Shown here: positions 29,107-63,457 of the stretch, piece by piece
How the letters are laid out: every line of letters starts with the position of its first letter
Numbering within the stretch: the first letter of the stretch is position 1
Origin: Euglena gracilis
Taxonomy: Eukaryota
Direction of reading: 5' to 3'
Assembly (NCBI GenBank): GCA_039621445.1
Contig: CP154954.1
Span: forward strand, 8,682,634 to 8,746,633
DNA: 64,000 nucleotides
Program-made: the position numbers and the translations under genes
The notes under the pieces: model-generated
Seen by the model: only the letters and a program-made list of their open reading frames with translations
The model's database searches: none
What the model was told of the DNA's origin: nothing

Positions 29107-29157
29107 ATGGCGGACCTGGTGTTCACCCCCACTGTGGTCCGCAACCTCCGGGCCCTC
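29107..29157 (+). CDS. MDN1: Midasin exon 1 in window (MADLVFTPTVVRNLRAL); may extend 5' to the AG acceptor at 29047
   Basis: Pre-D1 motif; joins exon 2 across the CCCTCGAG direct repeat. Confidence 0.75.
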
Positions 29158-30648
29158 GAGCATACGTCTCTTTAAGGTTTTGCAGCCCCCCCCCCCTGGG
29201 GGAACCCAATTTTGGCCCACCCAGCCTCAACAGCACCCCCCCAGGGGGGTGCTGCTAGCTCTGCTAGCCAGCCCTCTGGGGGTCCAGCCGAAAATTTTTA
29301 GGCAAAACGCCGAAATTTTTAGAAAGAAAGTGTTCAAAAATGGCCAAAAATTGGGGTTTCGGGGGTGTTTTGGGCGTTTTGGGGGGTGTTAGACACTCAT
29401 TTTTTTTCTTCAAAATTGTGTTTTGCAGGTCATTCTTTGGGCAATTGTCTGATTTCCGTCAAACCCGGCCCATCTCAGGTCCAGCTAGGGTCCAACCCCC
29501 CGCCCCCCCTGGGGCTGGCCAACCCAAATTTCCAGCCACCCCAAATTTCTAGCCCTAGCCCCCCCAGGGTCCTTGAAGAGGTGTATGCCCTCGAGGCCGC
29601 AGTAGACTGCAGCCCCGCCATCCTCGTCGAGGGCATCACCGGAACCGGCAAGACCGCGCTCATCGCCCGACCGGCCCCCCGGCATTAGATCCCCGCAGGT
29701 CGGTCGAAACGGGCGGGGTGCCGAGGCCCCCTCCCCCAGAAGTCGGTCTTCGGCCTTAACTTGCGATCTTGCCCCCCTCCCATTTGTCAGGGTTTTTGGC
29801 CTCGCATGGCCTGCCGGACTTCTCAACATGCAAATTTGACCCCTAAGGTTCCCCCCTGTCCTCACCTTCAAAAAATCTCGGCCTGGGCCAAGCGCCTGGG
29901 GGGGGGGGATACATCCCCCTCGTCCTTGACATGGGTTGCCTATGACACACACACCGTGTAAACTGCACTTTCGCTGTAATTTGGTGGGGGAATGTAGCAA
30001 CGTGGTGCCTTGGGCCAACCAATAACATTCAGTCAAGTGCCTGGGCTGGAAATCAGCAGTAGCTCCGACACGGACCCATGGCTTAGGGATGACCTGACTG
30101 GTGCCAAACACCTTCCTGGTGAGATCCAGCTCAGTTGGGCTGTGGCAGCCGCCACGCCAAAAACCAAACACTTGAAAAGGTTGAGAAGGGTTGCCAAAGG
30201 CCTCTGTCTGAGTCTCTGTCCCTCCTGGAATGTTGGCCTCTTGCCCATATCCATACATACATACATACATACATACATACATACATACATACATACATAC
30301 ATACATACATACATACATACATACATACATACATACATACATACATACATACATACATACATACATACATACATACATACATACATACATACATACATAC
30401 ATACATACATACATACCACTCCCCCCCCTTATTTGAGCACACCCACAGGCCAAAGGACCCCCCAAATGCTCAAATAAGGGGGGGGGTCAAATAAGGGGGG
30501 GTCAAAAATTCCTTTAGAAAGAGGGCAAAAAAATTTTTTGTACCTACCTACCTACCTACCTACCTACCTACCTATCTACCTACCTACCTACCTACGTACC
30601 TACTTACCTACCTACCTACCTACCTACCTACCTACCTACCTACCTACA

Positions 30649-30680
<32 letters not shown>

Positions 30681-33600
30681 CATACATACATACATACATA
30701 CATACATACATACATACATACATACATACATACATACATACATACATACATACATACATACATACATACATACATACATACATACATACATACATACCAC
30801 TCCCCCCCCCCTTATTTAAGCACACCCACAGGCCAAAGGACCCCCCAAATGCTCAAATAAGGGGGGGGGGTCAAATAAGGGGGGGGTCAAAAATTCCTTT
30901 AGAAAGAGGGCAAAAAAAAATTTCGGCGCCTTCGGCGCCTAAAATTTTTTCTTCCCCGGACCCAAATGCTCAATTAAAGGGGGGGGTCAAATAAGGGGGG
31001 ATGAGTGGTACATACACATATACATACATACATACATACATACATACATACATACATACATACATACATACATACATACATACATACATACATACATACA
31101 TACATACATGCATACATGCATACATACATACATACATACATACATACATACATACATACATACATACATACATACATACATACATACATACATACATACA
31201 TACATACATACATACATACATACATACATACATACATACATACATGCATGCATGCATACATACATACCTACACACATACATACGTACATACATACATACA
31301 TACATACATACATACATACATACATACATACATACATACATACATACATACATACATACATACATACATACATACATACATACATACATACATACATACA
31401 TACATACATACATACATACATACATACATACATACATACATACATACATACCACTCCCCCCCCTTATTTGAGCACACCCACATGCCAAAGGACCCCCCAA
31501 ATGCTCAAATAAGGGGGGGGTCAAATAAGGGGGGTTTCAAAAATTCCTTTAGAAAGAGGGCAAAAAATTTTTTCGTACCTACCTACCTACCTACCTACCT
31601 ACCTACCTACCTATCTACCTACCTACCTACCTACCTACCTACCTACCTACCTACCTACCTACCTACCTACCTACCTACCTACCTACATACATACATACAT
31701 ACATACATACATACATACATACATACATACATACATACATACATACATACATACATACATACATACATACATACATACATACATACATACCACTCCCCCC
31801 CCTTATTTGAGCACACCCACAGGCCAAAGGACCCCCCAAATGCTCAAATAAGGGGGGGGTCAAATAAGGGGGGGTTCAAAAATTCCTTTAGAAAGAGGGC
31901 AAAAAAATTTTCGTACCTACCTACCTACCTACCTACCTACCTACCTACCTATCTACCTACCTACCTACCTACCTACCTACCTACCTACCTACCTACCTAC
32001 CTACCTACCTACCTACCTACCTACCTACCTACCTACATACATACATACATACATACATACATACATACATACATACATACATACATACATACATACATAC
32101 ATACATACATACATACATACATACATACATACATACATACATACATACCACTCCCCCCCCTTATTTGAGCACACCCACAGGCCAAAGGACCCCCCAAATG
32201 CTCAAATAAGGGGGGGGGGGGGTCAAATAAGGGGGGGTCAAAAATTCCTTTAGAAAGAGGGCAAAAAAAATTTCGGCGCCTTCGGCGCCTAAAATTTTTT
32301 CTTCCCCGGACCCAAATGCTCAATTAAAGGGGGGGGTCAAATAAGGGGGGATGAGTGGTACATACACATATACATACATACATACATACATACATACATA
32401 CATACATACATACATACATACATACATACATACATACATACATGCGTACATACATACATACATACATACATACATACATACATACATACATACATACATA
32501 CATACATACATACATACATACATACATACATACATACATACATACAGACATACATACATACATACATACATACATACATACATACAACATACATACATAC
32601 ATACATACATACATACATACATACATACATACATACATACATACATACATACATACATACATACATACATACATACATACATACATACATACCACTCCCC
32701 CCCCTTATTTGAGCACACCCACATGCCAAAGGACCCCCCAAATGCTCAAATAAGGGGGGGGTCAAATAAGGGGGGGTTCAAAAATTCCTTTAGAAAGAGG
32801 GCAAAAAAATTTTTCGTACCTACCTACCTACCTACCTACCTACCTACCTACCTACCTACCTACCTACCTACCTACCTACCTACCTACCTACCTACCTACC
32901 TACCTACCTACCTACATACATACCTACATACATACATACATACATACATACATACATACATACATACATACATACATACATACATACATACATACATACA
33001 TACATACATACATACATACATACATACCACTCCCCCCCCTTATTTGAGCACACCCACAGGCCAAAGGACCCCCCAAATGCTCAAATAAGGGGGGGGGTCA
33101 AATAAGGGGGGGTTCAAAAATTCCTTTAGAAAGAGGGCAAAAAAATTTCGTACCTACCTACCTACCTACCTACCTACCTACCTACCTACCTATCTACCTA
33201 CCTACCTACCTACCTACCTACCTACCTACCTACCTACCTACCTACCTACCTACCTACCTACCTACCTACATACATACATACATACATACATACATACATA
33301 CATACATACATACATACATACATACATACATACATACATACATACATACATACATACATACATACATACATACATACATACATACCACTCCCCCCCCTTA
33401 TTTGAGCACACCCACAGGCCAAAGGACCCCCCAAATGCTCAAATAAGGGGGGGGGTCAAATAAGGGGGGGTCAAAAATTCCTTTAGAAAGAGGGCAAAAA
33501 AAAATTTCGGCGCCTTCGGTGCCTAAAATTTTTTCTTCCCCGGACCCAAATGCTCAATTAAAGGGGGGGGTCAAATAAGGGGGGATGAGTGGTACATACA

Positions 33601-35043
33601 CATATACATACATACATACATACATACATACATACATACATACATACATACATACATACATACATACATACATACATACATACATACATACATACATACA
33701 TGCGTACATACATACATACATACATACATACATACATACATACATACATACATACATACATACATACATACATACATACATACATACATACATACATACA
33801 TACATACATACATACATACATACATACATACATACATACATGCATGCATGCATACATACATACCTACACACATACATACGTACATACATACATACATACA
33901 TACATACATACATACATACATACATACATACATACATACATACATACATACATACATACATACATACATACATACATACATACATACATACATACATACA
34001 TACATACATACACACATACATACCACTCCTCCCCCTTATTTGAGCACACCCACATGCCAAAGGACCCCCCAAATGCTCAAATAAGGGGGGGGTCAAATAA
34101 GGGGGGGTTCAAAAATTCCTTTAGAAAGAGGGCAAAAAAATTTTTCGTACCTACCTACCTACCTACCTACCTACCTACCTACCTATCTACCTACCTACCT
34201 ACCTACCTACCTACCTACCTACCTACCTACCTACCTACCTACCTACCTACCTACATACATACATACATACATACATACATACATACATACATACATACAT
34301 ACATACATACATACATACATACATACATACATACATACATACATACATACATACATACATACATACATACATACATACCACTCCCCCCCCTTATTTGAGC
34401 ACACCCACAGGCCAAAGGACCCCCCAAATGCTCAAATAAGGGGGGGGTCAAATAAGGGGGGGGGTCAAAAATTCCTTTAGAAAGAGGGCAAAAAAAATTT
34501 CGTACCTACCTACCTACCTACCTACCTACCTATCTACCTACCTACCTACCTACGTACCTACCTACCTACCTACCTACCTACCTACCTACCTACCTACCTA
34601 CATACATACATACATACATACATACATACATACATACATACATACATACATACATACATACATACATACATACATACATACATACATACATACATACATA
34701 CATACATACATACATACATACATACATACATACATACATACATACATACCACTCCCCCCCCTTATTTGAGCACACCCACAGGCCAAAGGACCCGGGGGGG
34801 GTCAAATAAGGGGGGGGTCAAAAATTCCTTTAGAAAGAGGGCAAAAAAAAATTTCGGCGCCTTCGGCGCCTAAAATTTTTTCTTCCCCGGACCCAAATGC
34901 TCAATTAAAGGGGGGGGTCAAATAAGGGGGGATGAGTGGTACATACATACATACATACATACATACATACATACATACATACATACATACATACATACAT
35001 ACATACATACATACATACATACATACATGCATACATACATACA

Positions 35044-35077
<34 letters not shown>

Positions 35078-35335
35078 CATACATACATACATACATACAT
35101 ACATACATACATACATACATACATACATACATACATACATACATACATACATACATACATACATACATACATACATACATACATACATACATACATACAT
35201 ACATGCATGCATGCATACATACATACCTACACACATACATACGTACATACATACATACATACATACATACATACATACATACATACATACATACATACAT
35301 ACATACATACATACATACATACATACATACATACA

Positions 35336-35369
<34 letters not shown>

Positions 35370-35451
35370 CATACATACATACGTACATACATACATACAT
35401 ACATACATACATACATACATACATACATACATACATACATACATACATACA

Positions 35452-35485
<34 letters not shown>

Positions 35486-38400
35486 CGTACGTACGTACGT
35501 ACGTACGTACATACATACATACATACATACATATATACATGCTTACATACATACATACATACATACAGAGATACATACATGCATACATGCATGCATACAT
35601 ACATACATACCGTGCTTTGTTTTTCTGAGCTAATTTTCAATAAATGTTGGTGCGGGGAGGCTGGGGAAAGGTGCCCCCCTGGCCATGGACCGCCCCCACC
35701 TCGCGCGACTGCGTGATCAGGACCTGGTCACTGTCAACATCGATGACAGCTTCGATGCCAAAGACCTGCTGGGCAACTACATTTGCGGTGATCCCAGTGG
35801 CCCTCACCCCCCATGTTTGTGGTAGATCTTCGTTGGTCGATGCACAAACATATAGAGAGAGATATGTTGGTGATGATGATGATTTACACCAATCTAGAAA
35901 AGAGAATGTGTCTTCATGTGTGGCATGAATGTGATGCTTGCAAATTTAAACTTTATTTCCACCTTGTCCGCAGCGGCACATGTTCAACGCGTCTGCATAC
36001 CTGCATTCATGTTTTTGGGTGGGTGTGTGGGTGGGGTGCATGTGTGTACAAATCCACTTGTGTGGAGTGTGCTCGCCATCTTCCATTTGTCATTCCCGGC
36101 CCCTGATGGGACACCCCGAGAGACGCTGGGCGGGCCGACACCCCCGGCACGTATGTGCTGCAGGCAGGGCCCCTCGCGACGGCGGTCCGCGCCGGGCGGT
36201 GGATCGTCATCGAGGACATCGACCTCGCCAGCTTCGACCTCCTCTCCGTCCTCATCTCCCTCATCGACACCGGCGCCCAGGGCCAGCCCATGCGGGCCAG
36301 TCCCCATAGCCCTGCCCCCCCCATCCAGATGCCTGCAAATAAAAAACGAAAGCAAATTCAAAAAAAATTCGCTTTCACACTCAATTTTTTTTGTTTTGGG
36401 TGTTCCCCCATTGTCTCGGTGGCCAGACACCTAGTCACCACACCTGGTGACGCATCACAATTTTGTTGGGGTGTTTTTTTGCTGCCGTTTGCAACTTTCA
36501 CCCGTTTCACCCCCGTGACAGTCACTCCTGAACGCCGCAGGCGAGGGGCGAGGGGTCTGCCCTGCGAGCAACCTCACCGTGCAGGACCGCGAGATCCCGG
36601 TCCGGCCAGGCTTCCGCCTCTTCGCCACGCAGGCGCTCGGCAGCAGCACCACCGCCACCATGAACCGCACCAAGGTCCCTACCCCATCCCTTGCCATCTC
36701 CCCAAGCTTCCTTTTCCGGCACAGGCGAGCGACAACATGCAACGTTATATATGATGCAGGGCGTTCCGTCTTCTCTTTTGGGCACCATTGTTAGTTGCTG
36801 GCTGTGTTTATTTTCTTATCTTTTCTTTGTCAAGGTCACGAACTCACACCGAAACCCTGCTCAATTTCGAACCTTGAGAGTTTGTCCACTGTTTTCCAGC
36901 CTTTTTTAACTTTTATTAAATTGAAAGTTGAAAGATGGAACTTTTGTTTGGAACTTCCATCTTTCTTCTGGATTTCACTGTTGGAATTGATTGTACAGTT
37001 TGGCGGCCCAAAACGGGGCGCTGGCGGGTCGAAAAACGCTCATTTTCGGCTCAAAAACAGTTTTTCCGGGTCCGGGAGACCGAAAAAACATCGTTTTGGG
37101 CAAAAAAAAATTTCGATTTTTTCGACTTTTTTGACCCGGTTTTGAGCGTTGATGGTTTTGATGGTGTGATGGTTTCGATTGTGCATTTTAATTGTCTTTA
37201 GCCAACGATCATTGTGCTGCTTTGTTCAGGTCCTTTCCTCTTTTAACAAATGGGGCCACAGTCGGGCTCTGGCATGGAGCCTTGTGCCGCAAAGTGATGT
37301 TGGCTTCACTGTGACGGATATTTATGTATTATTTTTTTAATTTTCGGTCTGCAGCCGTTTCAATGCATCCCCATCGCAGGTGATGGTTTGTCACCAATAT
37401 ACCGCTCTCAGTTTAGCTCAAGTGACACGCTGGGGTTGTATATGGTTATATATATACATATATATACATATATATACATATATACAAAGATATATATATA
37501 TATATATACATTTGATCATACATGTGGTTTATACATATGGTTATATATTTTATTTATTATTTATTTATATATTTTATTTATTATTTATTTATCATCATAT
37601 ATATGTATATACATAAACAGACACACACACACACACATATACATACATACACACACAAACACACACACACACACACACTTACATATTATACATATCATTG
37701 GAAACTTAAAAAAATTACAGGGAAGTGGGATATGGATCGAGCGCTTCGGGTAGTCAATGACCAAGACCTCCGGCTCCCCGAGGTCACGACCGGCGGCCAG
37801 GACCCGGAGTCGTCGTCATCTACAGCCTGTCGCTGGCGGAGATGGCGGCGGTGGTGGCGGTGCAAAACCCGGCCATCCCCCGCCGCTTCGTGTCCCACTT
37901 CCTCAACTCCCTCGCCCCGCCGCCCACGGTGCCGCGGGTGGCCGGCCACGTTTGGGGGGCCTGCGGGTGCTCGCCCATGCTTTTCTCGGTCGAGGATATA
38001 TATTCACCGTGCCACCCCCCGGAGGGTGTGATGCAAAACGGGGGTGCGGGGTGCAGGAGGGGGTCTCCCCCCACCTGGACCAGGAGGGGCGTTCCGGATT
38101 ACCTGCCTCGAGCCGAAAATTGGTCGTGCGGTGTCCCCAGTCCCCCCTCCCTGGTCCGACCCCCCATTTACCCTATATCAAGCCCTGCCCGGGATTGGAG
38201 ACCTGGGTGGGGGAGTTGGTGGTCCCTGTGGGGTGCTGAGAGGTCTTACAAAAAAAAGTTGCATGAAGTTGCCGGAAGAGTTGATAGAATTGATCCCCCC
38301 CCTGTCGATGGGTGGGTTCTGCCGACCCCCCCCCCCCAACGACAGCCAGAAACAGCCTTTCAGTGTCGGAAGCCCCCCCCATAGAGCTCTTGGCCTGGCT

Positions 38401-44400: not shown

Positions 44401-45792
44401 TTGGCTCCATACCAACCCCACACCCAGGAAATTGTTCTCCCCGGGAAACTGTCCTGTAAACTGTACCCCCTTACCCGTCTTCATACGACCTGTCTTCTCT
44501 TCTTCTACCCGTTCATCTGTGTCCTAATTTTTTGAAATTTTTCAATTTTTTTTGTTTCCAAAAAAGGCAATCACCAAGGTTAAAAAATTTGTGAAAAATG
44601 CCTTCCCAGATTTTTTCGGTAGAAAAGGTAGGTATCTGACGCTTTTCTAGGTTTTTTCGGTGGGTATTTTTTTAGGTGTAGAAAAATCATTTTAGAAAAT
44701 GCCTTTTTTGTCCACTAGCCCAGACCTGCCCGGGAAACTGTCCTCTGTCACTGTTGCCGCTGACCTGTCCTTATAGGGCCTCTGTACCTGCTGACTGGTC
44801 TGGAGAAAGTTTCCAAGGGGGAGGGTAGTTTGTTTTCTCGTGGCTCTGTGAACTCTATCACTCTTTTGATTATTTTTTTCATGTTCAATGTTCACACCAG
44901 TTTTCACCCGTACACCAGTTCTCACCCATCCACCTGGCCCTGTTGTCAATGCAGCGTGGCACGCTGTACCTTTCGGAGCGGGGGGACACGGAGCCCATTC
45001 CCATGCATCCCAGAGGGGCTCGGCTTTCCATCGTTTAGGAATGCCCTTTCCAAACCAACCTATTTTCTCACACCAACCTACACGAAAGTTTGACTAGGTT
45101 GAAAATTTGAATCGGCTGTGGGTGACGTCTTCTACCCCCCCCCCAGGAAATATGTATATTTTCCCACCAAGACAAGACACGTGTTCTTCCAACCACAGGA
45201 AGGATGTGGTGAGTTCATCCCCGTCATGTGGTGGGTGGGCTGAGTGAGCGCCCTTTCGATATTTTGCGAAGAAGAAGGAGCAACAAAGAAGAAGCCCGAA
45301 AAATTTTGGATCCAAATTAGACACCCAAAAGTGGTCTCCTCAACCCCCCCCCACCCCCAGGCAGGCGTGAGTCGGTGCCAGGTCTTAAAAATAAAAGAAA
45401 AACAAATAAAAAAGTCAAAATAAACAAACAAACAAACAAATAAATAAAAATAAATAAAAATAAATAAATGAAATGAAATGGGAGTTGGTGACGCCGCGCC
45501 CCGGGCCAACTTCCGGCTGTTCGCATGCATGAACCCGCCCACCGACGTCGGCAAGAAGGACCTGCCCCCCGCGCTGCGGTCGCGGTTCACGGAGGTGTAC
45601 GTGCCGGACCAGCTGGACCGCACGGACGTTGCCATCGTGGTCCAGCACTACCTCGCGAACCTCACTGCCAGCCCGCCCGTCGACGACGTCGTCGAGTTCT
45701 ACATCCAGTGTGTCAAGGTGTGTACCGGGTCATGTCTGTGTGCGTGTGTGTGGTGTGCATGTGTTTGTGTGTGTGTGTGTGTGTGTGTGCAT

Positions 45793-45831
<39 letters not shown>

Positions 45832-46509
45832 CGCGCACGTGTGTGTGCGCGCGCACCTTGCAGGGATATATCTCCTTTTTTCTGCTGGCCAAGGTGACAG
45901 TGTGCAGTTTGTGGTGTAACAAGCTGGCGATTTTAGGCATTGCGTGCTTCTGCAGAATGTAGCCAGGGCATCACATTTACCTCTCAACGCCTCTCCGGGA
46001 ACCCGTCTCCTCTGCCAATCTTGTCGTCATGGCTGCCAACCATTTGCTCCCCGGCTTCCAGGCCAGCGCAACGCAGCTCACCGATGGCAACCCGTCCAAC
46101 CCCAAACCCCACTACACCCTGCGAACCCTCAGCGCCTCCCAGGCTGGTGTGGCATTGCCGCACTGGTTTCTGAAGCATTGATTTGCTTGGGGTTTGGACC
46201 GTGGCCAGAGTCGCCACTGCTGGGGATAGAAGGCACGTGGCATCATATATTAATATTTTGTTTACAGTTTACTCACTTGTCATTTCTGGCTTTCCATCAT
46301 CTCACCTCAACTGTCTGGGGTTGAGTTGGAGGAGCTTGCCCAAAATTGGATTGCAGATTAGTGCCCAAATAAGTGTCACCCCTGAGGGTCCAAAGCTTCG
46401 GTCTGATAATGTGCACACCCTGTGCACTTAAATGGGGGGTCATGGTCCCCAGTCAGGTCCCTCCACACACACACACACACACACAACACAGCACACAACA
46501 CACAACACA

Positions 46510-46540
<31 letters not shown>

Positions 46541-52500: not shown

Positions 52501-55500
52501 TGTGTACATGCATGTATGTATATACACAGCATACACGCTATATGTATGTGTGAGTGTTTGCACATTGTATATGTTTTATGCACATGGACATGTCTTTTTT
52601 GTATGGTTTCGTGTAAATACTCCAGATCGCAAGGAGCAAGCGGGTGCCCCCATCGAGGACCTCGCCCACCACGGCTTCATGCTGCTCGGCGAGCGGTGCC
52701 GGCGGCCGGAGGAGCGGGCGGTGGTGCGCCAGACGCTGGAGAAGGAGTGCGGCGTCGTGATCGACGAGGCGCGGCTGTACGACTGCTTCGCCAACCCGAC
52801 GCTGAAGCCGCTGCTGGACCGCATGGCGGCCGTGAAGGACACACAGGGCGGCCCCCGGGCGATGGGGGGCCCAGCCCGCGCGTCGGGACAAACGTCCTGC
52901 CGTTTCTCTGAGGCCGTCCGCTTGAAGCGCCAACCGGCTGGCTGTCAGGTGGGAGAGTGAAGTTGAAAGGCCTCCATGGGGGACAGATGGCGTAGAGTAG
53001 AGTACCCCACAGTGCTCCACAGTACTTCACAGTATTCCACAACACCCCCCACCCCCCCACAGACACATACCCCCCACAGACCCCACACTTAAGTGCGGGG
53101 GCTCCGTTTTATATCATATGTGCCCCGGGAGGCTGACATCTCCGATTATCCCGGCTGATTTGGGGGGTATTCTCCACCCACGGCGGCAACAGCATGCTCT
53201 CCACCTGGGAACTCAATTCCGGCTTGGCCACTCCTGTGGTGACTTGGGGTTGAGCGTGCCGCTCTGCCGGCCGACAGCTCACTGAACGCCCTGGTGTGGA
53301 CCCACAGCCTGAAGCGGCTCTTCTCCCTCGTCGGGTGGTGCATGCACTTCGACGAGCCGTTCGTGCTGGTCGGGGACACGGGCGGCGGCAAGACCACCAT
53401 CTGCCAGCTGTACGCCGCCCTGACCGGACAGCAGCTGTCCATCCAGGCTTCTTTTTAAGTCACCTGACCCCCCCCCCCCCCCCCCCGGGGGGGGGGGTGG
53501 GTCCGGGCCGGACTCCCCGGGGGGGGGGGTCCCGCGCCGGAGGCGCCGGGTATACCTTTTTGCCGCGAAGCGCCGAAATTTTTTGAAAATTGCCTTTAGC
53601 GGGCCCGATTTTGGGGGGGTCCCCGCCCCCCCCCCCCTGGGGGGTTCCCGCGCCACCCTGGTTGGGTGGGGGGGGCCCCCCCCTCCCCCCCGGGGGTCTT
53701 AAAAAGAAGCCTGTGTCCATCGTCAACTGCCACCAGCACAGCGAGAGCTCCAGGGACGGCGGTGTGGAGCCCCCAAACTTGGTGATGCGAGCCCCCCCCC
53801 CCCAAACTCTGGCCCAGTCTACTGCATGGATCAGATAGTCCGGATATTAAATATTTTTCAAAAGAGTAATTAAAAGGGAAAAAAAAGAAATAAAATCAAA
53901 ATATATGAACGTTTAATAAAATTGTAAATCATAAATTGTAAATAAACATAAACAAATTTAAGTATATAAATAATTCAAATAATTATAAATTCTGAAAAAA
54001 ATATAAACCTGAGTGTAATATAAATCAAAGATGTTTTTGATCTCTACCAATGGGAAACGGTCCATCAGGCATGCGTCCATTTGTCAGGACTGGCTGGCCA
54101 CCCGGCCAACGTCAGGGCCGGGCCACACCGCCGTGGGGCCGACTTCCTCGGGAGCCTACGGCCCGCCTCAGCAGAACTGGCGGCCCAGGGCAAACTGTTC
54201 GCATGGGCGGACGGCCCGCTGGTGACCGCCGTCCGGGGCGTGCCTTCTTCGGCTGCCAAATTTTGCCCATCAAGAGAGATGTATTTGAAATCGCGCTTTT
54301 TGCATAAAATATTTTGCCCTGGAAAAATTTTTTGTAGTTGGTCGCCAGGCCTGGGGTCTTTGATATTTTCACCCTGTTAAAAGGCAGCTTTGCAGAGGAG
54401 TGAATTTTTTCCGAGTTTGTTATTGTCATTTCAGCTTCCATCGTGGCCGACAGTCAAGAGGAATCAATTCTGGAAGGAGGTTTGGTGGACGAGGGTGAAG
54501 TACCCCCTGAAGAAGAAGAAGAAGAAGAAGAAGAAGAAGAAGAAGAAGAAGAGGAAGACTCACCTCAAAAGAAGAGGAAGTTCCATTATGGAGCGAAGTC
54601 AACTCCAAGCTCCCGTACATATTCCGGCTCCAAAAAACGTGTGGAAAAACGTGGGTGGAGCCAGAATATGCTGCCGTTGCAAGCAATTCCCATTTGGTAC
54701 ATTTGAAGTCCGGGGTGAGTCAATGTGGTGTGTGGCTTGCCTGAAGCTTGCTTAGACTGAACGTGCAGGTGCCATCCATGTCGATTTTCAACGCTTCAGT
54801 GTTTGCCATTGTCTTCCAGGAGGTCGTCTTTGTGAATCATTGACAGGTACACCGGCATTGTCACATGTTTTCGGATTTTGGGCAGCAAAACTCTGTTATA
54901 TTCCTGCATTTTCTCAGGGGTTTTATGCAAGTTGCATTTTTTTGCATTTTTTTTGCATTTTTTTTGCATTTTTTTTGCTTTTTTTTTGACTTGCATAATT
55001 TGAAGGGCCAAGTTGCATATCCTCCCCCTAGACCATGACACCGCAATGGCGAGACGTCGCCCTGGGGCCATGAAGCAGGGGTACCACTTCATGCTCGACG
55101 AGGTCAACCTCGCGGAGGACTCTGTCCTGGAGCGGCTGAACTCCGTCTTCGAGAGCGGCCGCACCTTGACCCTCCCTACCCAGCCCCAGCCGGAAGCGAA
55201 AGCCATCTCGATCACTCTTCTCCGTTCAAGAGAGGAGGTGTGGTGGCCCCCTTCATCGATGTCTCTTTCATCCAAATATATACCGACGTATCTGGGCACA
55301 AACAAACAAGCTTTATCCAAATGGCATCAAATCAAGGCTGGCGTCCACGTCCGTGAGGGCCGAAAACCTACGCCGGGACAAAACAGATTTGCAGTCAGAA
55401 TTCCTCCTCTCCTGCCCTCCCCACCCCCGTGAACCTGCCCTACCTGGTAACCTGCAGGGCCGTACACCAAACTGTCAGAGTCCCTCCCTGTCCTGGGCCA

Positions 55501-56717: not shown

Positions 56718-59700
56718 CACAACACAAACACACACACACACACACACACACACAGGGGAGGGGCTCATGGAAAGGGGTCATTCCCTGATGGGCAGCCCGG
56801 AGGACCTGCGGGTCATCTTGGAGACGAAGCTTGGGGCCCGCCCAGAGTTCCTCCCGGTGCTGCTGGATTTCATTGCATTCTTCATGCAGTCGGAGTCGAA
56901 GGGCAAACGGGCAGCCGGGGTCGGATTGTGTCTGGGTGTTGCAGGGTGGGACAAGTCCATTCCAAGTCATGTTCCAGAAACATGGGAATGGGTGTCCAGC
57001 CATCCAGCACGTTTTTTTCCCACGACCAGCCTTTTGCAGCAGGACCCGCGGGACCCCCCGGGGTCTTTGAGAAACACCTTTGGTGACTTCGCAGTATGCC
57101 CGAGCTGGGTTCGTCAGCAGATACGAAATGGTATTCCAATTCAGTTGGGTGATCCGTCCTGTGCAGTTTGTGCGGGTTCCTTTCAAGTTCGTGTGGTTCG
57201 CCTGCATCCCCACCCACGCACGCACGGGCTTGCACGCACGCACGGCGCACGGCACGGCGCACGGCACGGCGTACGGCACGGCATACGGCACGGCGTACGG
57301 CACGGCATATGGCACGGTGTGTGGCACGGCGCACGGCGCGCGCACCCACGCACGGGCGCGCGCCTGCACGCCTGCCCCCGGCACCCCGGCTGGGGGTGCC
57401 CCCTCAGTGTCCGGGACGTGGTGGGCTGGATCGAGTTCATCGACCGCGGCGCCGCGGTGGGCCTCTCCCCGGCGCAGGCGGTGGTCCAGGGCTGCGACAC
57501 CGTTATCCTGGGCGGCGTGGGCATCGGCACTGGCATGGCCAGGGAGGAGTGAGTCCTGGCCGACCCCCACCCCGGGGGTCGTCATGCCGAGAACCTGGCC
57601 GGATGCCGCCCATGAGGTGGTCAGGGTCTTCTGGCGTTGCCCAACCCGTTTTCCGTGAAATCATTTGGGAACATGCCAGGGTCCTTGGTGCCGGACAACC
57701 TGTGGAATTCTGCAAGCATCATTTCCATCATTTCCAGATCACAAGAGTGTGAAAGGTTGATTTTGCAGGTTTTTGCGTCGGCTGGGAGTCAAAAACGTCA
57801 ACGTTTCCTGCTGACCCGGAACCCCCTCCCGCCCACTTGAAACTGCCTCCTGCATCTGCACTCACTGGCTGGTCCTCATTGGGTTTTGCCCCCCCTCTCT
57901 CTGTGCTGACTGGAGGCAGTTTTCCGGGAGGAGGTACAAACCAGAGGACAAATTTATTTTGTTTATTAAATATTAATTATTTATATATTTGTTTTTTTTA
58001 ATAATCATATTCTAATTTACGTTAATTATATTTTCATTATTTATTTTTCTATTATTATTTTCTGCTTCATTAAAATATAATATATTATATACTTATTATT
58101 TATTAATATACATTTTTATTTATGAAAAATATTAATTTGTTTTAACAAGATTTATTGTGGTTTGAAGTCCACCCACCTCCCCAACAGCCCAACCCCACCG
58201 TCTCATTCCGCCCTGCACATGGCCCCGGAGGCAGCGGCGGCTCTCCGCCAGGACTGCCTGGGGCATCTGTGCCGGCTGCTGGCGGGCGCCGGCCACCCCA
58301 CCCGGGCCTTGTTTCTGTGCGACCCTCCGACCACCCCAGCACACATAAACATACAAATGCACAAATAAAAATGCTAATGCACACATAAACATACAAATGC
58401 ACACATAAAAATACAAATGCACACATAAAAATACAAATTCACACATAAAAACATACAAATGCACACATAAACATACAAATGCGCACATAAACATACAAAT
58501 GCACACCTAAAAATGCAAATGCACACCTAAAAATAAAATTGCACACATAAACATACTGCAAATAATAATCCCCATATAACCCTCCTTGATTTGGGGTGTC
58601 TAAATAATTTGCCGAGGGTTATTATTTTTATTTCTGAGGTGCTCGAGGGGGGTAATATGGACAGTCAGGCGATTGCAGGGGGCCAGACACCCTCCCACAC
58701 CCACACCCAACACCCACACAAACACAAACACAAACACCCACACCCACCCACAACCACCACCTATTTGTCATCCTGTGTCCAAACGTCTCCTTGGGGTGGT
58801 GCCATAATCAGAGGCCCGTTGCCATCACGGAGGCGGAGGCGCAGCGGTACTTCTGGGAGGTCAGCACCTCCCCCGCCCCAACGTTGCCCGAGGAGCTGCG
58901 GCGGCACTACTCCTTCGAGTGCGAGACGAGTGGGGCGGGGTGGCTGGCTTCACTGGCGGTGGAGCCCCCCTGTTCTCAAATGAGTGAAACAGAAGAAATC
59001 TGGAAGTATTTTCGCTCCTCACTTTTGGTTTGCACGGCTTCAAATGTTGTGTGTGTGTGTGTGTGTATTATCAGATTAATCATGTTGGTATTTAAGTCAT
59101 CAAATATTGTATTAAAAATGCATATTATAATTCATATAATTTCAATTTTTTGTATTTATACATGTTTTAAAAATATCTAAAACAAGTACAAGATTGAAAT
59201 TGTTAAATTAATGGCGACGTTCAAGAGGGGGCGACCATGACCGCCACGCTTCCCCACCGCCCAACGAAGCTCAACCTCTCCAAGATCGTCCGCGCGCTGG
59301 CGCTGCCCAAGCCCTTGCTGCTGGAGGGCAGCCCTGGTGTGGGCAAGACCACGCTGGTGGAGGCGCTCGGCCCGGCCCGCCCCAGCCCACCAGCCAGCCG
59401 AGTGGGTCACAAAAAACTAAACCCTAATTGTAATTAATAATAATAATAGTAATAATAATAGGGTTTTAAATAAATAAAATAGGGTTTAGTTTTTAATTTA
59501 ATAATAGTAGTTTTTAATAATAGTAATTATTATTATTATTTGAGCTAAGTTTAATAGCTAATCTAATAGAGCTGCGGGTCCAAATAGTGCTGCACCCCCC
59601 AAACATAGCTATGCGAAGTGTGTGGTAGCTGGTGCAGTCTACTGCAGGCATCTTTTGTAACCCGCAGAGAGGGGAAAGGGGGGCGAATTTCCACCCGAAC

Positions 59701-60722
59701 AACCCACCGAAGTCGTCTGAAGGTGAACCAGACGACCGGAGTGCACCTCGCTGGCCTCAGAGTAGGACTTGAGCAGGCAAAAGGGCGCCTGCGGCGACAG
59801 GCCGGACCGAGTCCAATAGGACGTCAAGGTCCAAATAGTGCTGCACCCCCCGCTGCCGGAGGCGGCCGTCCAACAGTGCTGCAGTGCAATACTATTTGGG
59901 AGGGGGGTTTAGCTGTTGGTAACGGAGGGGGCTGGGCAGCAATCTCTTTGGGTTCTCTGAGAATCCTGCGGAGGACAATATGACGACGTTGAGCAAGAAA
60001 CATCCAAAGGTTTGGATGACGATCTTAACACTGACCCTCACCCTTAAAACACGCTCACCAATTACCGCGGCTGGCTGCGGCGGCACCTCCCACGGTTCCC
60101 CAGCCGCCCAAGTAGGGTGAATGCACATGGGGGGGGGGGGCTCGAACGATGCGTTGAAGACGCCGTGCGAGGGTCCACCGGTGTCCTGTTGGGACCAATT
60201 CATCGCGCAAATCCGTGCACATATTTTCCATCGCAAATCAGACTCCATGCAAAGTCATTGGTGGTTTTACAGTCTGGCCATGATCAGTCACGGCCTCCCA
60301 TGGCGCCACCATCCAGTATGGCATTCATCCTGTGTGACCCCTACCCCCTCGCCAATTTAGCAACCTTTGGGGCCAAACCAACTGACACCCAAATTAGAGT
60401 CTCCCGTGTGATGCGTTGGGAAAATGCAAAGGACATCTGAAACTCTGCACCATTTCGGCACCATTTAAGCAAGTTCGCAATTTTACGAGAAGGTGGATGG
60501 GCTGAACCCCAAATCAGAGCAACGGATTCCTTCAATTTGGGCAGTGGTGTTCATTTTTGAGGATGCACTGCACACCGTATGGTACCTTGTGGAGGCTCTC
60601 CCCCGCTGCATTGTGGGCTGAGCCTCTGGATGTGTCGATTATTTTTGATCAATGATCATATGCGGTATATGCATGTGCCTGCGTAAAATGTTTGCATGGA
60701 TGGGTATATATATATATATATG

Positions 60723-60755
<33 letters not shown>

Positions 60756-63457
60756 ACGTATATACGTATGTGCATATATGCATATGTATACGTATATATG
60801 TATGTGCATATATGCATATGTATACGTATGTACAAATATATGTGTAGACTCGCAACACACATGCACGCACAGACACCCCGGCGTCTCACCGTGTGCATTT
60901 GCCGTTCATATGCCGTATGCTGCGTGCAGGTGCAGGGTTGTGTCGGGTCGGCTGGGCGGGCCGGCGGGGGGCGCGGCGTACGGGAAGGCCGTGGTGCGCA
61001 TCAACCTCAGCGAGCAGACGGACATGGTGGACCTCGTCGGGGCGTTCCTGCCGGACCACTCCGACCCGGACGGGCCGCCGCGCTTCGCGTGGTCCGAGGG
61101 GCTGCTGCTGCAGGCGCTGGAGCGCGGGCAGTGGGTCATCCTGGACGAGCTGAACCTCGCGTCCCGCCTGGGATGCCCCAAAGTACTGCCCCCCGAATGC
61201 TCTTGCATGTGTGCATGCATGCATACCTCATTCGTTCGGTGCGGCCAGGAAAGCGTCATGCATGCAAAGCCGCTGTGCATGTGCAAGTAGGTTGGCGGAA
61301 CGCCAGGCGCAAACCGTTGAGAACCAGCCAGGTATCATTCGGTGCAACCCAGTGCGGATGAATCCAAACAAGTCTTCTTGGTGTTTATCCACCAACTCCC
61401 AATGCAATAATTCTGGGTCTGGCATCGGGGTAGGAATCTCCCCTCTGGCCCGGTAGGAGGCACCCCATCCCCCAATCCGTGCTGGAGGGCCTCAACTCCA
61501 TCCTGGACCACCGGCAGGAGCTCTTCGTGCCGGAGACCGGCCGCCACGTGCGGCCCGCGCCGGGCTTCCGCATCTTCGGCTGCCAGAACCCGCTGTCCCA
61601 GGGGGGCGGCCGGAAGGGGCTGCCCCGGTCGTTCCTGAACCGCTTCGCCCGCGTGTACGTGGAGCCGTTCACCGACGCCGCACAGCGCCTGCGGGCTCCC
61701 CGGCGTGCTTTCTGGGGGGAGTGCAGTCAAGCCTGCAGGTCAACGGTTGTGCGCTTTTGTGCGGTGAAGTGGTTGTGCTCTTTTGAACACCAACACGCTG
61801 AATTAAAAATTCTTCTTTTTTAAATATGGGCACTATTTTAAGCTAATCGCACCTTGCCCGTGTATCCCGATGTTTGTATTTGCCTTTTTTGGGTGTACAG
61901 AATCAGCTCTGTTTGTTGCTTAGCCTTTTTCATTACACGTGTCACCTCCAACATTGGTGCTCTTTCCGTGGGCCCGTGCATGGCCACGCCCCGGCCGCTG
62001 GGGCCGACCTGTATTCTGTGGTCACCACTGTACACCCGGCCCTGCCGCGCCCGGTCGCGCAGCGCATGGTAACGTTCAACGCGCTCCTTCACCAGCGCGT
62101 CATGGTGGAACGGCGGTTCGGGGCGAAAGGCGCCCCGTTCGAGTTCAACCTCCGCGACCTGTTCCGCTGGTGCGACCTGCTGCAGCGGCAGCAGGCGGGC
62201 CGGGGGCGGCCCCTCGCCCAGGCCCCGCGGGTTGGTCACCTTTTTTGTATTGCAACAGTGCACAAACGCGCATGTGCTCAAACACAGCTGCACACACACA
62301 CGCGCGCGCACGCAGCCACACACAGCCACACATGCACACACACAGCCTCACACACACAAACAACACACAAACAGCCACACACAGGCGCGCGCGACACACA
62401 CACGTGCGCGCGCCAGCACGCAAATATGCGCGCGCACACACATACGCACGTTGTTTCCCAAGCATTTGTGGACATCGTAGTGCCCTGCGCGGCCTGCCCT
62501 CAACCCAGCGGAGTTTGCGGACGTGCTGCACCTGCAGCGCATGCGGGACGAGGCAGACCGGGTGGAGGTGCAGCAGTGCTATGCGGAGGTGTTCCGGTGC
62601 CCCCTGCCGGTGGATTCCCCGCCAGCCGACTGCTGCCGGGAGGAGTCTATCCCCTTTTTCCAAAAACAGGGCCCGGTGATGGGTGGCATTCCTACACCAA
62701 AAAATGGGGGTCAGCCAGAGTTCAATTTCAGGAGGGTGCACGGGGATGAGAGGGGGTGCCCCCCCCCCTTGCCGGATCGGAGGGGTCTGGACCACCCCCC
62801 TGCCTTTGCATCAAACCCTGGGCCAACTCCTTTTGAGGACAGATTTGGCAGTTGCCGTCACCACCACGCTGCAAAAGCCCCCACAAAGCAACCCGTGGTA
62901 TGCATGGGTATATTGGCAGTGTTTTGTCTTTCAGGCAATTCAGACCTCTATTGTTGCAGAGAATTAGCATTTTCGTGGTGTGTCGGAGGATTGTGATTGT
63001 TTCAACGGCGTTGACCCAGGACATTGCCTGGCTTTTTTCCCATTCGAGCGCTGTTGTGTCGACACACTGTGTCATTGAAAGCCTCGTAACAACAGCCCCG
63101 CAGCTGTCGTTTGCTTTGGGCAAAGGTGGCGGGTGTGGCAGGGCAATGATCACAAATCCACTGCTTCTGATTTCCATATCTGCTCTTTGGGGGTGAGCAG
63201 TATTTCAGTCAAATAATGAAGTTCAAGGAGCCCTGGGTTCTTATGGGACGAAACCCAAGCATTTCTTTGTGTCAGCGCTGTGGGCTGCCCCCGGCCTTTG
63301 CTGTTCGCCACCGGCCCCGGTACGTTGCGCATCAACGGCTTCGACGTCCCCGCCGGCGCAACGGCTTCGAGCGTTGGGGACGCGGAGAAGCGCCCATTGC
63401 TGGTATTGCCGGGGCAGATGCGTAGCCTGGCGGCGCTGCTGCGCTGCGTTGTCCATG
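29107..63457 (+). CDS. MDN1: Midasin (Rea1/MDN1) AAA-ATPase gene, partial: 41 exons, D1-D5 and approach to D6; continues beyond the window and may start upstream
   Basis: Five tandem AAA modules with Walker A GITGTGKT, GETGIGKT, GPTSSGKT, GDTGGGKT, GSPGVGKT; Walker B IEDID and LDE(I/L/V)NLA; motifs FRLFACMNP, FATQNP, ATMNPGGDFGKKELSPALRNR, GGGRKGLPRSFLNRF. Exon phases are consistent at every junction. Confidence 0.95.
29161..29587. mobile_element. Transposon-derived nonconventional intron (intron 29158-29592)
   Basis: 17-nt TIR CATACGTCTCTTTAAGG/CCTTGAAGAGGTGTATG; perfect TSD CCCTCGAG at 29153-29160 and 29588-29595. Confidence 0.85.
29593..29668 (+). CDS. MDN1: Midasin exon 2, D1 Walker A
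   Basis: EAAVDCSPAILVEGITGTGKTALIA. Confidence 0.88.
30251..35610. repeat. Higher-order array of a ~210-bp MITE alternating with (TACA)n/(TACC)n, inside midasin intron 2
   Basis: 4 full and 7 truncated copies; TIR TACCACTC..CCCCCCTTATTTGA / TCAAATAAGGGGGG..GAGTGGTA; period about 1.25-1.35 kb. Confidence 0.9.
35698..35789 (+). CDS. MDN1: Midasin exon 3
   Basis: HLARLRDQDLVTVNIDDSFDAKDLLGNYICG. Confidence 0.85.
36137..36274 (+). CDS. MDN1: Midasin exon 4, D1 Walker B
   Basis: DTPGTYVLQAGPLATAVRAGRWIVIEDIDLASFDLLSVLISLIDTG. Confidence 0.9.
36570..36674 (+). CDS. MDN1: Midasin exon 5
   Basis: NLTVQDREIPVRPGFRLFATQALG...; GT donor at 36675. Confidence 0.88.
37721..37747 (+). CDS. MDN1: Midasin microexon 6
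   Basis: After TTACAG acceptor; GSGIWIERF. 3' boundary inferred from an in-frame stop. Confidence 0.55.
37806..37922 (+). CDS. MDN1: Midasin exon 7
   Basis: GVVVIYSLSLAEMAAVVAVQNPAIPRRFVSHFLNSLAPP; boundaries approximate. Confidence 0.7.
38434..38551 (+). CDS. MDN1: Midasin exon 8
   Basis: ...RLALRDVLKWGRRV (sensor-2-like RD..KW motif). Confidence 0.82.
38555..38756. mobile_element. Transposon-derived intron, family C (intron 38552-38761)
   Basis: TIR CAGGCTT/AAGCCTG; 7/8 TSD GACGGGCT/GATGGGCT; ends resemble those of 53444-53713. Confidence 0.75.
38762..38880 (+). CDS. MDN1: Midasin exon 9
   Basis: YIPNTTRVALFEETVDSFCSCLP...KLE; GT donor at 38881. Confidence 0.82.
39208..39939. mobile_element. 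Degenerate Tc1/mariner-like element
   Basis: TA|CAGTGCGGACAAAAATTACGGG ... CCCGTAATTTTTGTCCGGGCTT|TA. Confidence 0.65.
40792..40997 (+). CDS. MDN1: Midasin exon 10
   Basis: VSSDALVYFLTLRKPQF...VEVGRAVLPR...FAPTRTCLTLMESIMVAV..GEALLL; AG acceptor. Confidence 0.88.
41559..41710 (+). CDS. MDN1: Midasin exon 11, D2 Walker A
   Basis: TGETGIGKTFVIQ...VLNLNQQSGSSDFMGGFRP. Confidence 0.92.
42661..42786 (+). CDS. MDN1: Midasin exon 12
   Basis: PLLHRWRQLFEQVFSLAKNEAVL...RRWALLVEL. Confidence 0.85.
43250..43401 (+). CDS. MDN1: Midasin exon 13 (D2 insert, basic NLS-like stretch)
   Basis: QSSAATALKKLQ...PKRLKKKKK...EWLAFQE; GT donor at 43402. Confidence 0.8.
43807..43979 (+). CDS. MDN1: Midasin exon 14, D2 Walker B
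   Basis: FIFQFFEGLLVQAWRQGSWLLLDEINLA. Confidence 0.92.
44942..45011 (+). CDS. MDN1: Midasin exon 15
   Basis: GTLYLSERGDTEPIPMHP. Confidence 0.82.
45508..45717 (+). CDS. MDN1: Midasin exon 16
   Basis: NFRLFACMNPPTDVGKKDLPPALRSRFTEVYV; GT donor at 45718. Confidence 0.93.
46062..46136 (+). CDS. MDN1: Midasin exon 17
   Basis: QLTDGNPSNPKPHYTLRTLSA. Confidence 0.87.
46575..46696 (+). CDS. MDN1: Midasin exon 18
   Basis: ALNFTRLAIGVYGFHAALQEGIRMAFGTQI. Confidence 0.87.
47094..47128 (+). CDS. MDN1: Midasin microexon 19
   Basis: IRKHIVKNPQA; both flanking introns have paired ends and phases match. Confidence 0.72.
47645..47770 (+). CDS. MDN1: Midasin exon 20
   Basis: FIAFEHIWLEKGP...KYILTPSVKV. 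Confidence 0.88.
48161..48532. mobile_element. Family-B TA-flanked MITE within an intron
   Basis: Same termini and internal repeats as 7714-7874. Confidence 0.7.
48694..48839 (+). CDS. MDN1: Midasin exon 21, D3 Walker A
   Basis: PVLLQGPTSSGKTSMVEYLAQRTGHRFVRINNH. Confidence 0.94.
49163..49259 (+). CDS. MDN1: Midasin exon 22
   Basis: DLQEYFGTYISDKRGKLYFQEGILVEACRNGY. Confidence 0.92.
49521..50035. repeat. Diverged ~290-bp intronic tandem duplication
   Basis: GGCGCAGAGGGGGGG...TTGAAAGGTTTTCGCTGCTGCATTCG occurs at about 49527 and about 49819. Confidence 0.75.
50089..50205 (+). CDS. MDN1: Midasin exon 23, D3 Walker B
   Basis: VVLDELNLAPSEILEALNRLLDDNRELVIPETQ. Confidence 0.94.
50623..50783 (+). 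CDS. MDN1: Midasin exon 24
   Basis: FHLFATQNPPMLYGGRKVLSRAFRNRFVEL. Confidence 0.94.
51148..51285 (+). CDS. MDN1: Midasin exon 25
   Basis: FAGKHGFITPRDLFKWASR. Confidence 0.92.
51637..52482. mobile_element. TA-flanked MITE (TIR TGGCAGCTGCCTGCTACT/AGCAGTAGGTAGCTGCCA) with a nested inverted-repeat element at about 51871-52280
   Basis: Outer TIRs lie in TA/TG microsatellite. Inner arms are CCCCCCAAATATAAAACCCC and GGGGTTATATTTGGGGGG. Confidence 0.7.
52652..52840 (+). CDS. MDN1: Midasin exon 26
   Basis: EDLAHHGFMLLGERCRRPEERAVVRQTLEK. Confidence 0.92.
53273..53440 (+). CDS. MDN1: Midasin exon 27, D4 Walker A
   Basis: LVWTHSLKRLF...EPFVLVGDTGGGKTTICQ. Confidence 0.93.
53444..53713. mobile_element. 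Pristine hAT-like MITE acting as a nonconventional intron (intron 53441-53718), family C
   Basis: Perfect 16-bp TIR CAGGCTTCTTTTTAAG/CTTAAAAAGAAGCCTG; perfect TSD TGTCCATC at 53436-53443 and 53714-53721. Confidence 0.92.
53719..53751 (+). CDS. MDN1: Midasin microexon 28
   Basis: IVNCHQHSESS (D4 NCH motif). Confidence 0.87.
54141..54230 (+). CDS. MDN1: Midasin exon 29
   Basis: DFLGSLRP...KLFAWADGPLVTA. Confidence 0.9.
55070..55177 (+). CDS. MDN1: Midasin exon 30, D4 Walker B
   Basis: MKQGYHFMLDEVNLAEDSVLERLNSVFESGRTLTLP. Confidence 0.93.
55671..55816 (+). CDS. MDN1: Midasin exon 31
   Basis: AHPAFRVMATMNPGGDFGKKELSPALRNRLTEIYVP. Confidence 0.94.
56787..56908 (+). CDS. MDN1: Midasin exon 32
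   Basis: EDLRVILETKL...VLLDFIAFF. Confidence 0.85.
57398..57536 (+). CDS. MDN1: Midasin exon 33
   Basis: LSVRDVVGWIEFI...VILGGVGIGTG. Confidence 0.9.
58221..58299 (+). CDS. MDN1: Midasin exon 34
   Basis: APEAAAALRQDCLGHLCRLL. Confidence 0.8.
58340..58555. repeat. ~20-bp intronic minisatellite (GCACACATAAACATACAAAT)n
   Basis: About 10 tandem copies visible. Confidence 0.85.
58824..58927 (+). CDS. MDN1: Midasin exon 35
   Basis: ITEAEAQRYFWEV...HYSFECE. Confidence 0.78.
59263..59368 (+). CDS. MDN1: Midasin exon 36, D5 Walker A
   Basis: NLSKIVRALALPKPLLLEGSPGVGKTTLVEAL. Confidence 0.94.
60970..61165 (+). CDS. MDN1: Midasin exon 37, D5 Walker B
   Basis: VVRINLSEQTDMVDLVG...GQWVILDELNLAS. Confidence 0.94.
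61474..61679 (+). CDS. MDN1: Midasin exon 38
   Basis: SVLEGLNSILDHR...CQNPLSQGGGRKGLPRSFLNRF. Confidence 0.94.
62006..62215 (+). CDS. MDN1: Midasin exon 39
   Basis: FGAKGAPFEFNLRDLFRWCDLL. Confidence 0.93.
62502..62619 (+). CDS. MDN1: Midasin exon 40
   Basis: EFADVLHLQRMRDEADRVEVQQCYAEVF. Confidence 0.88.
63293..63457 (+). CDS. MDN1: Midasin exon 41 (leading into D6); 3' end approximate
   Basis: PLLVLPGQMRSLAALLRCVVH. Confidence 0.75.

Follow-up and report, generated by a model that had tools for sequence, protein, structure and literature searches.

Transposon-like anatomy and 8-bp flanking repeats in three nonconventional introns of a Euglena gracilis midasin gene

A stretch of 64,000 nucleotides of the Euglena gracilis genome (positions 8,682,634 to 8,746,633 of the forward strand of contig CP154954.1, assembly GCA_039621445.1; hereafter the window, to which all positions refer) contains part of a gene for midasin (MDN1) that is interrupted by numerous nonconventional introns. 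These introns probably include, at a rough probability of 0.7, at least three intact mini-transposons with terminal inverted repeats (TIRs) and 8-bp target site duplications (TSDs), and the splicing rule of nonconventional introns would remove each element together with one copy of its TSD. This reading of the sequence is carried by the TIR/TSD anatomy of the elements, its excess over chance, the register in which the intron ends pair, and the restoration of the protein sequence across the junctions.

How the nonconventional introns of euglenids originate and are removed has been an open question since the 1990s. Insertion of elements resembling miniature transposable elements with inverted repeats (MITEs) was proposed as their source, with direct repeats that blur the junctions (PMC3935182, 2013), and was later taken up for the diplonemids (PMC12621601). 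The idea of a MITE origin itself is already known. A 2024 review calls the pairing arms TIRs and the junction repeats TSD-like, and describes introns that leave as circles (PMC11282704); the available text of this review contains neither "8 bp" nor "hAT". No paper was found that links the spacers of 3 and 5 nt to the length of a TSD, names a transposon superfamily, or describes coding exons with intact elements in them, a provisional result of a search outside which subscription journals and supplements lay.

Three introns with transposon anatomy

The following introns of the midasin gene contain a complete element:

53441-53718, plus strand: MITE-like intron; element 53444-53713 (270 bp) with TIR and TSD
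29158-29592, plus strand: MITE-like intron; element 29161-29587 (427 bp) with imperfect TIR and repeat
38552-38761, plus strand: MITE-like intron; element 38555-38756 (202 bp) with TIR and near-exact repeat

The element at 53444-53713 has a perfect TIR of 16 bp starting CAGGCTTCTTTTTAAG (53444-53459 and 53698-53713) and carries the TSD TGTCCATC on both sides with 8 of 8 positions identical (53436-53443 and 53714-53721). The match does not continue into the bases beyond it on either side, which sets its length at exactly 8 bp. A scan based on homology only returned the junction of this intron as a set of nine equivalent positions, which matches the 8-bp repeat, and in the predicted RNA fold of 53436-53721 the two ends are paired and both 8-mers are single-stranded (z = -4.0). 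The element at 29161-29587 begins with CATAC, has the imperfect TIR CATACGTCTCTT.../...AAGAGGTGTATG and is flanked by the 8-bp direct repeat CCCTCGAG (8/8; 29153-29160 and 29588-29595). The third element, at 38555-38756, combines the perfect 7-bp TIR CAGGCTT/AAGCCTG with the flanks GACGGGCT (38547-38554) and GATGGGCT (38757-38764), which agree at 7 of 8 positions. According to an alignment, an internal motif shared by the three elements lies on the same strand in all of them. A first-pass annotation made from the sequence alone had named these introns, whose positions could be read directly from the sequence, as the youngest of the gene and had assigned an exact 8-bp repeat to each. Such a repeat is present at the introns 29158 and 53441, but that of the intron 38552 is one base short of exact.

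In metagenome data the sole match to both TIR ends, locus L001 (9098-9367), was rejected as a related element: a TSD is lacking, the palindrome reaches beyond the motif, and the interior bears no relation to the elements. The same 13-mers occur there within a longer palindrome (…GGGGTCAGGCTTC…GAAGCCTGACCCC…), with one further repeat just downstream.

Midasin homology and restoration of the coding sequence

The gene was delimited as follows:

29101-63444, plus strand: 5' third of the midasin (MDN1) gene with the N-terminal region and AAA ring and many introns, identified by Pfam and colinear homologues

Open reading frames (ORFs) on the plus strand contain the Pfam domain AAA_lid_7 (E=8e-15) and, with weaker scores, MDN1_4th and AAA_5. 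A protein search with one exon-bearing ORF yielded 149 long midasin representatives with 38-50% local identity, none of which is a close full-length relative. When these were used in a tblastn search, 30 exon blocks were obtained in colinear order from 29569 to 62621, spanning roughly residues 200-2000 of typical midasins. The window therefore contains the 5' third of a many-intron midasin gene that continues beyond it, and position 63444 is the stop of the gene model only and marks no established gene end. Automatic gene models (with 135, 37, and 52-54 introns) recovered only 10 of 17 trusted introns, were considered unreliable, and entered none of the counts; their one use was to supply five additional long-stem introns, which were picked blind to their flanks. 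A search for longer proteins with 61847-62749 as query gave no match. The database ORF P0001, which came up alongside the 149 midasins and is unspliced and 114 amino acids long, is 97% identical to the ORF at 61434-61820, and its three differences all lie in the intron-encoded part. Sequence from a very close second genome or haplotype is thus present in public data.

For the junction test, the flanks of each element were joined without the element and one 8-mer and compared with the 149 midasins; a high-scoring segment pair (HSP) was counted as spanning if it reached at least 6 amino acids on each side of the joined junction. The joined junction of the intron 29158 obtained 62 spanning HSPs, 45 of them ungapped, and restores ...VRNLRALE|AAVDCSPAILVEGITGTGKT. 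At the intron 53441 the number of spanning HSPs was 350 (166 ungapped), which includes matches to paralogous AAA modules, and at the intron 38552, which lies in a poorly conserved region, it was 11 (1 ungapped). At each of the three junctions the conserved midasin sequence continues without a break, as the first-pass annotation had anticipated, and the predicted excision of the element plus one TSD copy restores it. The first base of the predicted downstream exon is a purine at all three elements.

Elements outside the gene and comparison with chance

Two elements of similar build were found outside the midasin gene:

914-1219, unstranded: MITE-like element outside midasin, TIR CAGGCTTGTGCT/AGCACAAGCATG (11/12)
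3150-3571, unstranded: MITE-like element outside the gene, TIR CAGGGCTGT/ACAGCCCTG (9 bp)

The former is flanked by the exact 8-bp repeat GCCTCGAC at 906-913 and 1220-1227 and has a partial relative at about 5988-6390 that is 87-91% identical over the matching parts. The latter has the flanks TGGTTGGC and TGGTCGGC, which agree at 7 of 8 positions. No Pfam family was detected in the ORFs around these two elements. Together with those in the gene, five elements are thus available for comparison. All are non-coding and 202-427 bp long, with perfect terminal runs of 16, 9, 7, and 5 bp and the 11/12 TIR of the element at 914, and their flanking repeats are identical at 8/8 positions at 914, 29161, and 53444 and at 7/8 positions at 3150 and 38555. 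Base 6 of the repeat is a purine in all five, the two outside the gene included. The five elements are mutually no close copies. They have in common poly-C/poly-G palindromes, an GCCGAAATTTT-like core, sub-terminal words of the TTAAG type, and CAGG or CAT termini; the terminus reads CAGGC three times, CAGGG once, and CATAC once.

The window was scanned for exact 8-mer repeats that abut a TIR with at least 10 of 12 matches, with a filter for low complexity. Three of the ten hits were clean (914, 29161, and 53444) and seven lay in a microsatellite or poly-C/G context, whereas 200 block shuffles gave a mean of 0.11 exact-repeat hits per window and a maximum of 1. The excess of 8-bp repeats over shuffled controls that would be expected if the first-pass annotation were right is therefore borne out in the window, with three clean cases versus 0.11. 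A relaxed scan (7/8 repeat and 9/12 TIR), which supplied the elements 38555 and 3150-3571, returned 19 hits, whereas 60 shuffles averaged 5.15 with a maximum of 10. The 210 inverted-repeat pairs that match perfectly over at least 10 bp include five with a flank identity of at least 6/8; two of these five define introns (46140 with an identity of 6 and 53444 with an identity of 8) and three have low-complexity flanks.

Pairing register and splice motif

The junctions of 21 introns were fixed by alignment score alone, at sites where the homologues are contiguous. With D defined as the intron length minus the arm-to-arm distance, the 25 registers from D = -4 to D = 20 were ranked for each intron by the length of the terminal stem. 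D = 8, which corresponds to spacers of 3 nt upstream of the 5' arm and 5 nt downstream of the 3' arm, was the best register in 10 of the 21 introns and the second or third best in 4 more, the chance expectation being about 1. Addition of the two other MITE introns resulted in a set of 23, in which the longest stem at D = 8 was chosen blind to the flanks. At least five consecutive Watson-Crick pairs were present at this register in 15 of the 23 (the strong introns), so that the 3+5-nt pairing register described in the first pass was recovered. Nine of the strong introns have CDG..CHG, the predicted exon begins with a purine in 14, and the step from pyrimidine to purine (Y|R) is found at bases 5|6 of the flanking 8-mer in 12 of the 15 on each side. 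A frame-keeping GT..AG pair was absent within ±12 nt of the borders in 17 of 23 homology-anchored introns; of the others, one (45718-46061) has a conventional look and a few are ambiguous. The first-pass count of 36 introns out of 40 that lack GT-AG is plausible.

The D = 8 register and the motif are a reproduction of a published rule and no new result. The code 5'-N3-CDG…CH'G-N5-6|R was defined by knock-in experiments in which synthetic 50-bp introns were spliced (Nomura et al. 2025, PMC12501133). In the same study 61.2% of nonconventional introns show the signature and 84.4% of introns have direct repeats, and MITEs are mentioned as a possible source (PMC12501133). The introns of the midasin gene resemble euglenid nonconventional introns in their non-GT-AG borders, in arms that pair from +4 to -6, in part in the CAG/CTG motif (7 of the 15 strong introns), in the purine at the exon start, and in junctions that are "slidable" owing to direct repeats. 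They differ in that three of them keep the full anatomy of a transposon, whereas the published repeats are described as "short" or "TSD-like".

Flank identity in older introns

Four further introns are of interest because of their flanks:

46137-46574, plus strand: older nonconventional intron, 12-bp perfect TIR CAGGCTGGTGTG/CACACCAGCCTG (46140-46569)
50206-50622, plus strand: nonconventional intron, stem of 6 Watson-Crick pairs (12 with G-U), 50209-50617
57537-58220, plus strand: nonconventional intron, CAGGG/CCCTG arms at 57540 and 58215
62216-62501, plus strand: nonconventional intron, arms CAGGCCCCGCGG/CTGCGCGGCCTG (62219-62496)

The first-pass annotation had cited four flank pairs with 6 of 8 identical positions, and all are present at the ends of these introns: GCGCCTCC / CCGCCGCC at 46140/46569, ACCACGCC / CCCACACC at 50209/50617, GGCATGGC / CACATGGC at 57540/58215, where the borders lack anchoring by contiguous homology, and CCCTCGCC / CCCTCAAC at 62219/62496. 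The last of these introns was missed by the blind stem rule because the estimate from homology alone is 12 nt longer. The probability that a cross-pair reaches at least 6/8 is 0.033, and about one such pair is therefore expected by chance among the approximately 35 older introns counted in the first pass.

In the 15 strong introns the identity between the left and right 8-mers averaged 4.60/8 versus 2.93 after permutation, in which the right 8-mers were swapped among introns so that the shared Y|R composition was kept; the observed value was reached in 0 of 20000 permutations. When 17 register shifts were compared in the same introns, only shift 0 stood out (4.60 versus 1.8-3.4). The five added long-stem introns had flank identities of 4, 1, 3, 2, and 5. 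Flank identity is correlated with the number of TIR matches in the first 16 nt (rho 0.58, p=0.007, n=20). This pattern is regarded as a faint but real age gradient.

Observations that weigh against a transposon origin

Several observations speak against the proposed origin of the introns or its extension to the older ones. Without the three introns whose flanks agree at 7 or more of 8 positions, mean identity drops to 3.83 versus 3.17 (p=0.03, n=12), and in this 12-intron set shift -6 scores 3.75 versus 3.83 at shift 0. After inclusion of the five added introns the excess in older introns is weak as well (3.59 versus 2.97 of 8, p=0.018, n=17). Of the claim that older introns keep remnants of TSDs, an excess thus persists, but only a marginal one. 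Similarly, the relation between 8-mer identity and TIR perfection suggested in the first pass appears for the matches in the first 16 nt but not for the length of the consecutive stem (rho 0.13). Only 7 of the 15 strong introns have CAG..CTG, and the element at 29161 begins with CAT and is thus outside the published CDG motif. BLAST comparison with the window found no near-identical copies of the three in-gene elements, the matches being to themselves and to poly-C/G; as to dispersed copies in the window, the element at 914-1219 has its partial relative.

The remaining points concern the intron 53441 with its perfect TSD. Protein searches with the exon upstream of it (53243-53455) gave no spliced form. 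The only match to a search for longer proteins with this query was P0151, a protein of 226 amino acids from another assembly that is 72-81% identical to exons of the window; a search for near relatives yielded none. P0151 follows the exons 51190-51300, 52652-52852, and 53282-53440 colinearly, skipping the two sequences between them, and it leaves midasin exactly at the residue aligned to 53438-53440, the start of the intron 53441. It begins with non-midasin sequence at a place within an exon of the window, and for this reason looks like an uninterrupted genomic ORF. To judge from this alignment, a diverged relative seems to be interrupted at almost the same site as the element with the perfect TSD. 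The loss of colinearity exactly at the start of this intron is at odds with its description as one of the youngest. The site could be a hot spot, a case of replacement, or the position of an old intron. If P0151 is such an ORF, the relative behind it would lack two of the gene's introns, which would be consistent with known turnover and suggests presence/absence differences between relatives.

Other introns and repeats in the window

Further introns of the gene are listed here:

59369-60969, plus strand: nonconventional intron of 1.6 kb, 11-bp perfect stem CCGGCCCGCCC (59372-60964), flanks 5/8
45718-46061, plus strand: candidate conventional GT-AG intron, GTGTGT...CTTCCAG, no terminal stem
29664-35697, plus strand: intron of about 6 kb with (CATA/TACA)n arrays in higher-order repeats, borders approximate

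Within the last of these, (CATA/TACA)n microsatellites at 30252-35610 are organized in higher-order repeats of about 0.3-0.6 kb with separators formed by 19-bp inverted repeats of the TGCTCAAATAAGGGGGGG type. Just upstream of the midasin gene, a 12.6-kb tandem array (14734-27336) consists of about 700 copies of the 18-bp unit CAGATGCTGGACAAGATG with 90% matches. This satellite shows a strong GC and AT skew; its unit equals six codons, and frames are open across the array. A large imperfect palindrome at 1343-1707 (374 bp, 83% self-complementary) is flanked by (AT)n and TAATAT repeats and has as its core a 22-bp perfect inverted repeat at 1416-1634.

The region upstream of the midasin gene shares dispersed repeats (74-90% identity) with the interiors of its introns. 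They occur at 7711-7849, 10899-10951, 48158-48293, and 48420-48532, and as the pairs 11743-11880 / 47446-47583 (inverted), 11560-11642 / 37010-37085, and 49521-49761 / 49813-50031; one set is a tandem pair within a single intron. Repeated families, among them a small palindrome of the CCCGGGAAACTGTCA type, are therefore present inside introns. Rfam gave 0 matches and ARAGORN 0 tRNAs in the window.

Affiliation of the elements and alternative explanations

The first-pass annotation had interpreted the introns as domesticated hAT-like MITEs. For domestication no sign of a function beyond tolerance was found. It is doubtful that the elements are MITEs of the hAT family from which nearly all nonconventional introns descend and that older introns keep recognizable remnants of the TSD, although the 8-bp TSDs, the CAG with which the termini begin in 4 of 5 elements, the four 6/8 pairs at older introns (given the cross-pair probability cited above), and the correlation of TIR completeness with flank identity would all fit. 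A TSD of 8 bp is unspecific and also common to P, Zisupton, and other superfamilies, and beyond it no hAT feature was recognized in the elements. The terminal motif of hAT elements is YARNG, and their target consensus is nTnnnnAn. The former fits 1 of the 5 elements and the latter fits poorly, as none of the five TSDs has T at base 2 and two have A at base 7. An autonomous hAT transposase, which the first pass had led one to expect, did not appear: the 10 longest ORFs of the upstream region (window positions 1-14.7 kb) contain no Pfam family. The remnants in older introns are marginal, and no clear register peak persists once the three best introns are dropped.

Derivation from another superfamily with 8-bp TSDs, such as Merlin, would leave all other parts of the preferred explanation in place, the elements again being non-autonomous derivatives, but it is rather unlikely for Merlin itself or a group of its kind. 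Merlin elements have 8-9-bp TSDs, and E. gracilis harbors two autonomous families that have 8-bp TSDs, nearly perfect TIRs, and a DDE motif that is conserved (PMC8101967). For Merlin TIRs a conserved terminal 5'-GG-3' is given (PMC8101967), whereas the elements described here are 200-430 bp long, non-coding, and begin with CA.

The repeats could also be footprints of double-strand-break repair that captured filler DNA, with no duplication by a transposase. Such repair was invoked by Milanowski et al. (2016) for the new gapC intron with an 8-nucleotide direct repeat that is found in one strain of E. agilis only (PMC4770533), and it would agree with the in-gene element interiors, which are mutually no near-identical copies. 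Repair of this kind is nevertheless improbable in view of the constant repeat length of 8 in 5 of 5 elements, the inverted termini that abut the repeats and share CAGG(C/G)T in 4 of 5, the two elements outside the midasin gene, and the second copy related to the element at 914-1219.

That the insertions are unspliced, the register fits by coincidence, and this midasin copy is a disrupted or decaying allele or paralogue might account for the in-frame stops that follow each insertion on read-through (the frame-1 ORF ends at 53455), but it is very unlikely given that about 2000 conserved midasin codons stay open without the introns, that 2 of the 3 elements conform to the experimentally sufficient code N3-CAG…CTG-N5|R (PMC12501133), and that all three have the purine at the predicted exon start.

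Proposed mechanism and comparison with known systems

If the three introns are mini-transposons that are removed together with one TSD, the following course of events can be envisaged. A non-autonomous TIR element would insert into an exon, whereby 8 bp are duplicated. In the pre-mRNA the TIRs would then form a terminal helix, as in the predicted fold of 53436-53721, and the nonconventional machinery would, following the published rule, cut 3 nt ahead of the 5' arm and 5 nt past the 3' arm. In each of the two 8-mer copies the cut would lie between bases 5 and 6, and ligation would leave one copy. Since the removed length is the arm-to-arm distance plus 8 nt, which equals the element plus one TSD, the reading frame would be restored exactly, and such elements could consequently act as introns from the moment of insertion, provided that base 6 of the 8-mer is a purine. 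A shared Y|R would be expected if both junctions copy one target, and would be expected equally if Y|R is a requirement of the enzyme and insertions without it are lost. We infer that all three are spliced and have moved recently, and that most of the older introns have the same origin.

A more far-reaching version can be put forward only tentatively. Most euglenid nonconventional introns, which make up about 70% of the introns of a Euglena genome, might stem from one class of transposons with 8-bp TSDs, and the machinery might measure 3+5 nt in order to remove one TSD by cutting the same Y|R in both copies. Every insertion with a purine at base 6 would in that case be an intron from the outset, in either orientation, and the splicing system could represent an RNA-level defence or tolerance that co-evolved with, or was derived from, the geometry of the transposon.

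Precedents for the conversion of transposons into introns exist in other systems. Introner DNA transposons that create spliceosomal introns were reportedly described by Huff and colleagues in 2016. As in the introns considered here, an exonic element with TIRs and TSDs is precisely removed in introners, and the duplicated target supplies part of the junction (PMC11282704). Introners depend on the spliceosome and use GT-AG or co-opted sites, whereas the present introns are non-GT-AG and their removal is thought to be spliceosome-independent. In the three MITE introns no frame-keeping GT..AG pair is available, only GC..AG options at shifted positions; the three elements work like introners but are no members of this group. 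Giroux and colleagues are said to have reported in 1994 that maize Ds, a hAT element, can serve as a de novo intron. Ds likewise has an 8-bp TSD and resides in a coding exon; it is taken out of the transcript inexactly, at cryptic spliceosomal sites, whereas the excision implied here would be exact and set by the hairpin. Another possible parallel is bulge-helix-bulge splicing, in which an endonuclease and a ligase remove archaeal and tRNA introns and an RNA helix also sets cleavage at fixed distances. A review of the RNA-splicing endonuclease is reportedly cited by Milanowski in 2014. According to PMC11282704, the nonconventional introns of euglenids yield circular intron products.

The MITE hypothesis of 2013 predates any known euglenid transposon, and as far as can be judged from the sequence the elements described here are direct support for it. 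If the interpretation is true, intact elements with perfect 8-bp duplications in conserved codons would be the missing intermediate between transposon and intron, as would the agreement between the length of the TSD and the 3+5-nt spacers, and the two together would explain why insertion need not be lethal, why the two junctions share Y|R, and why the junctions of euglenid nonconventional introns are mostly "slidable".

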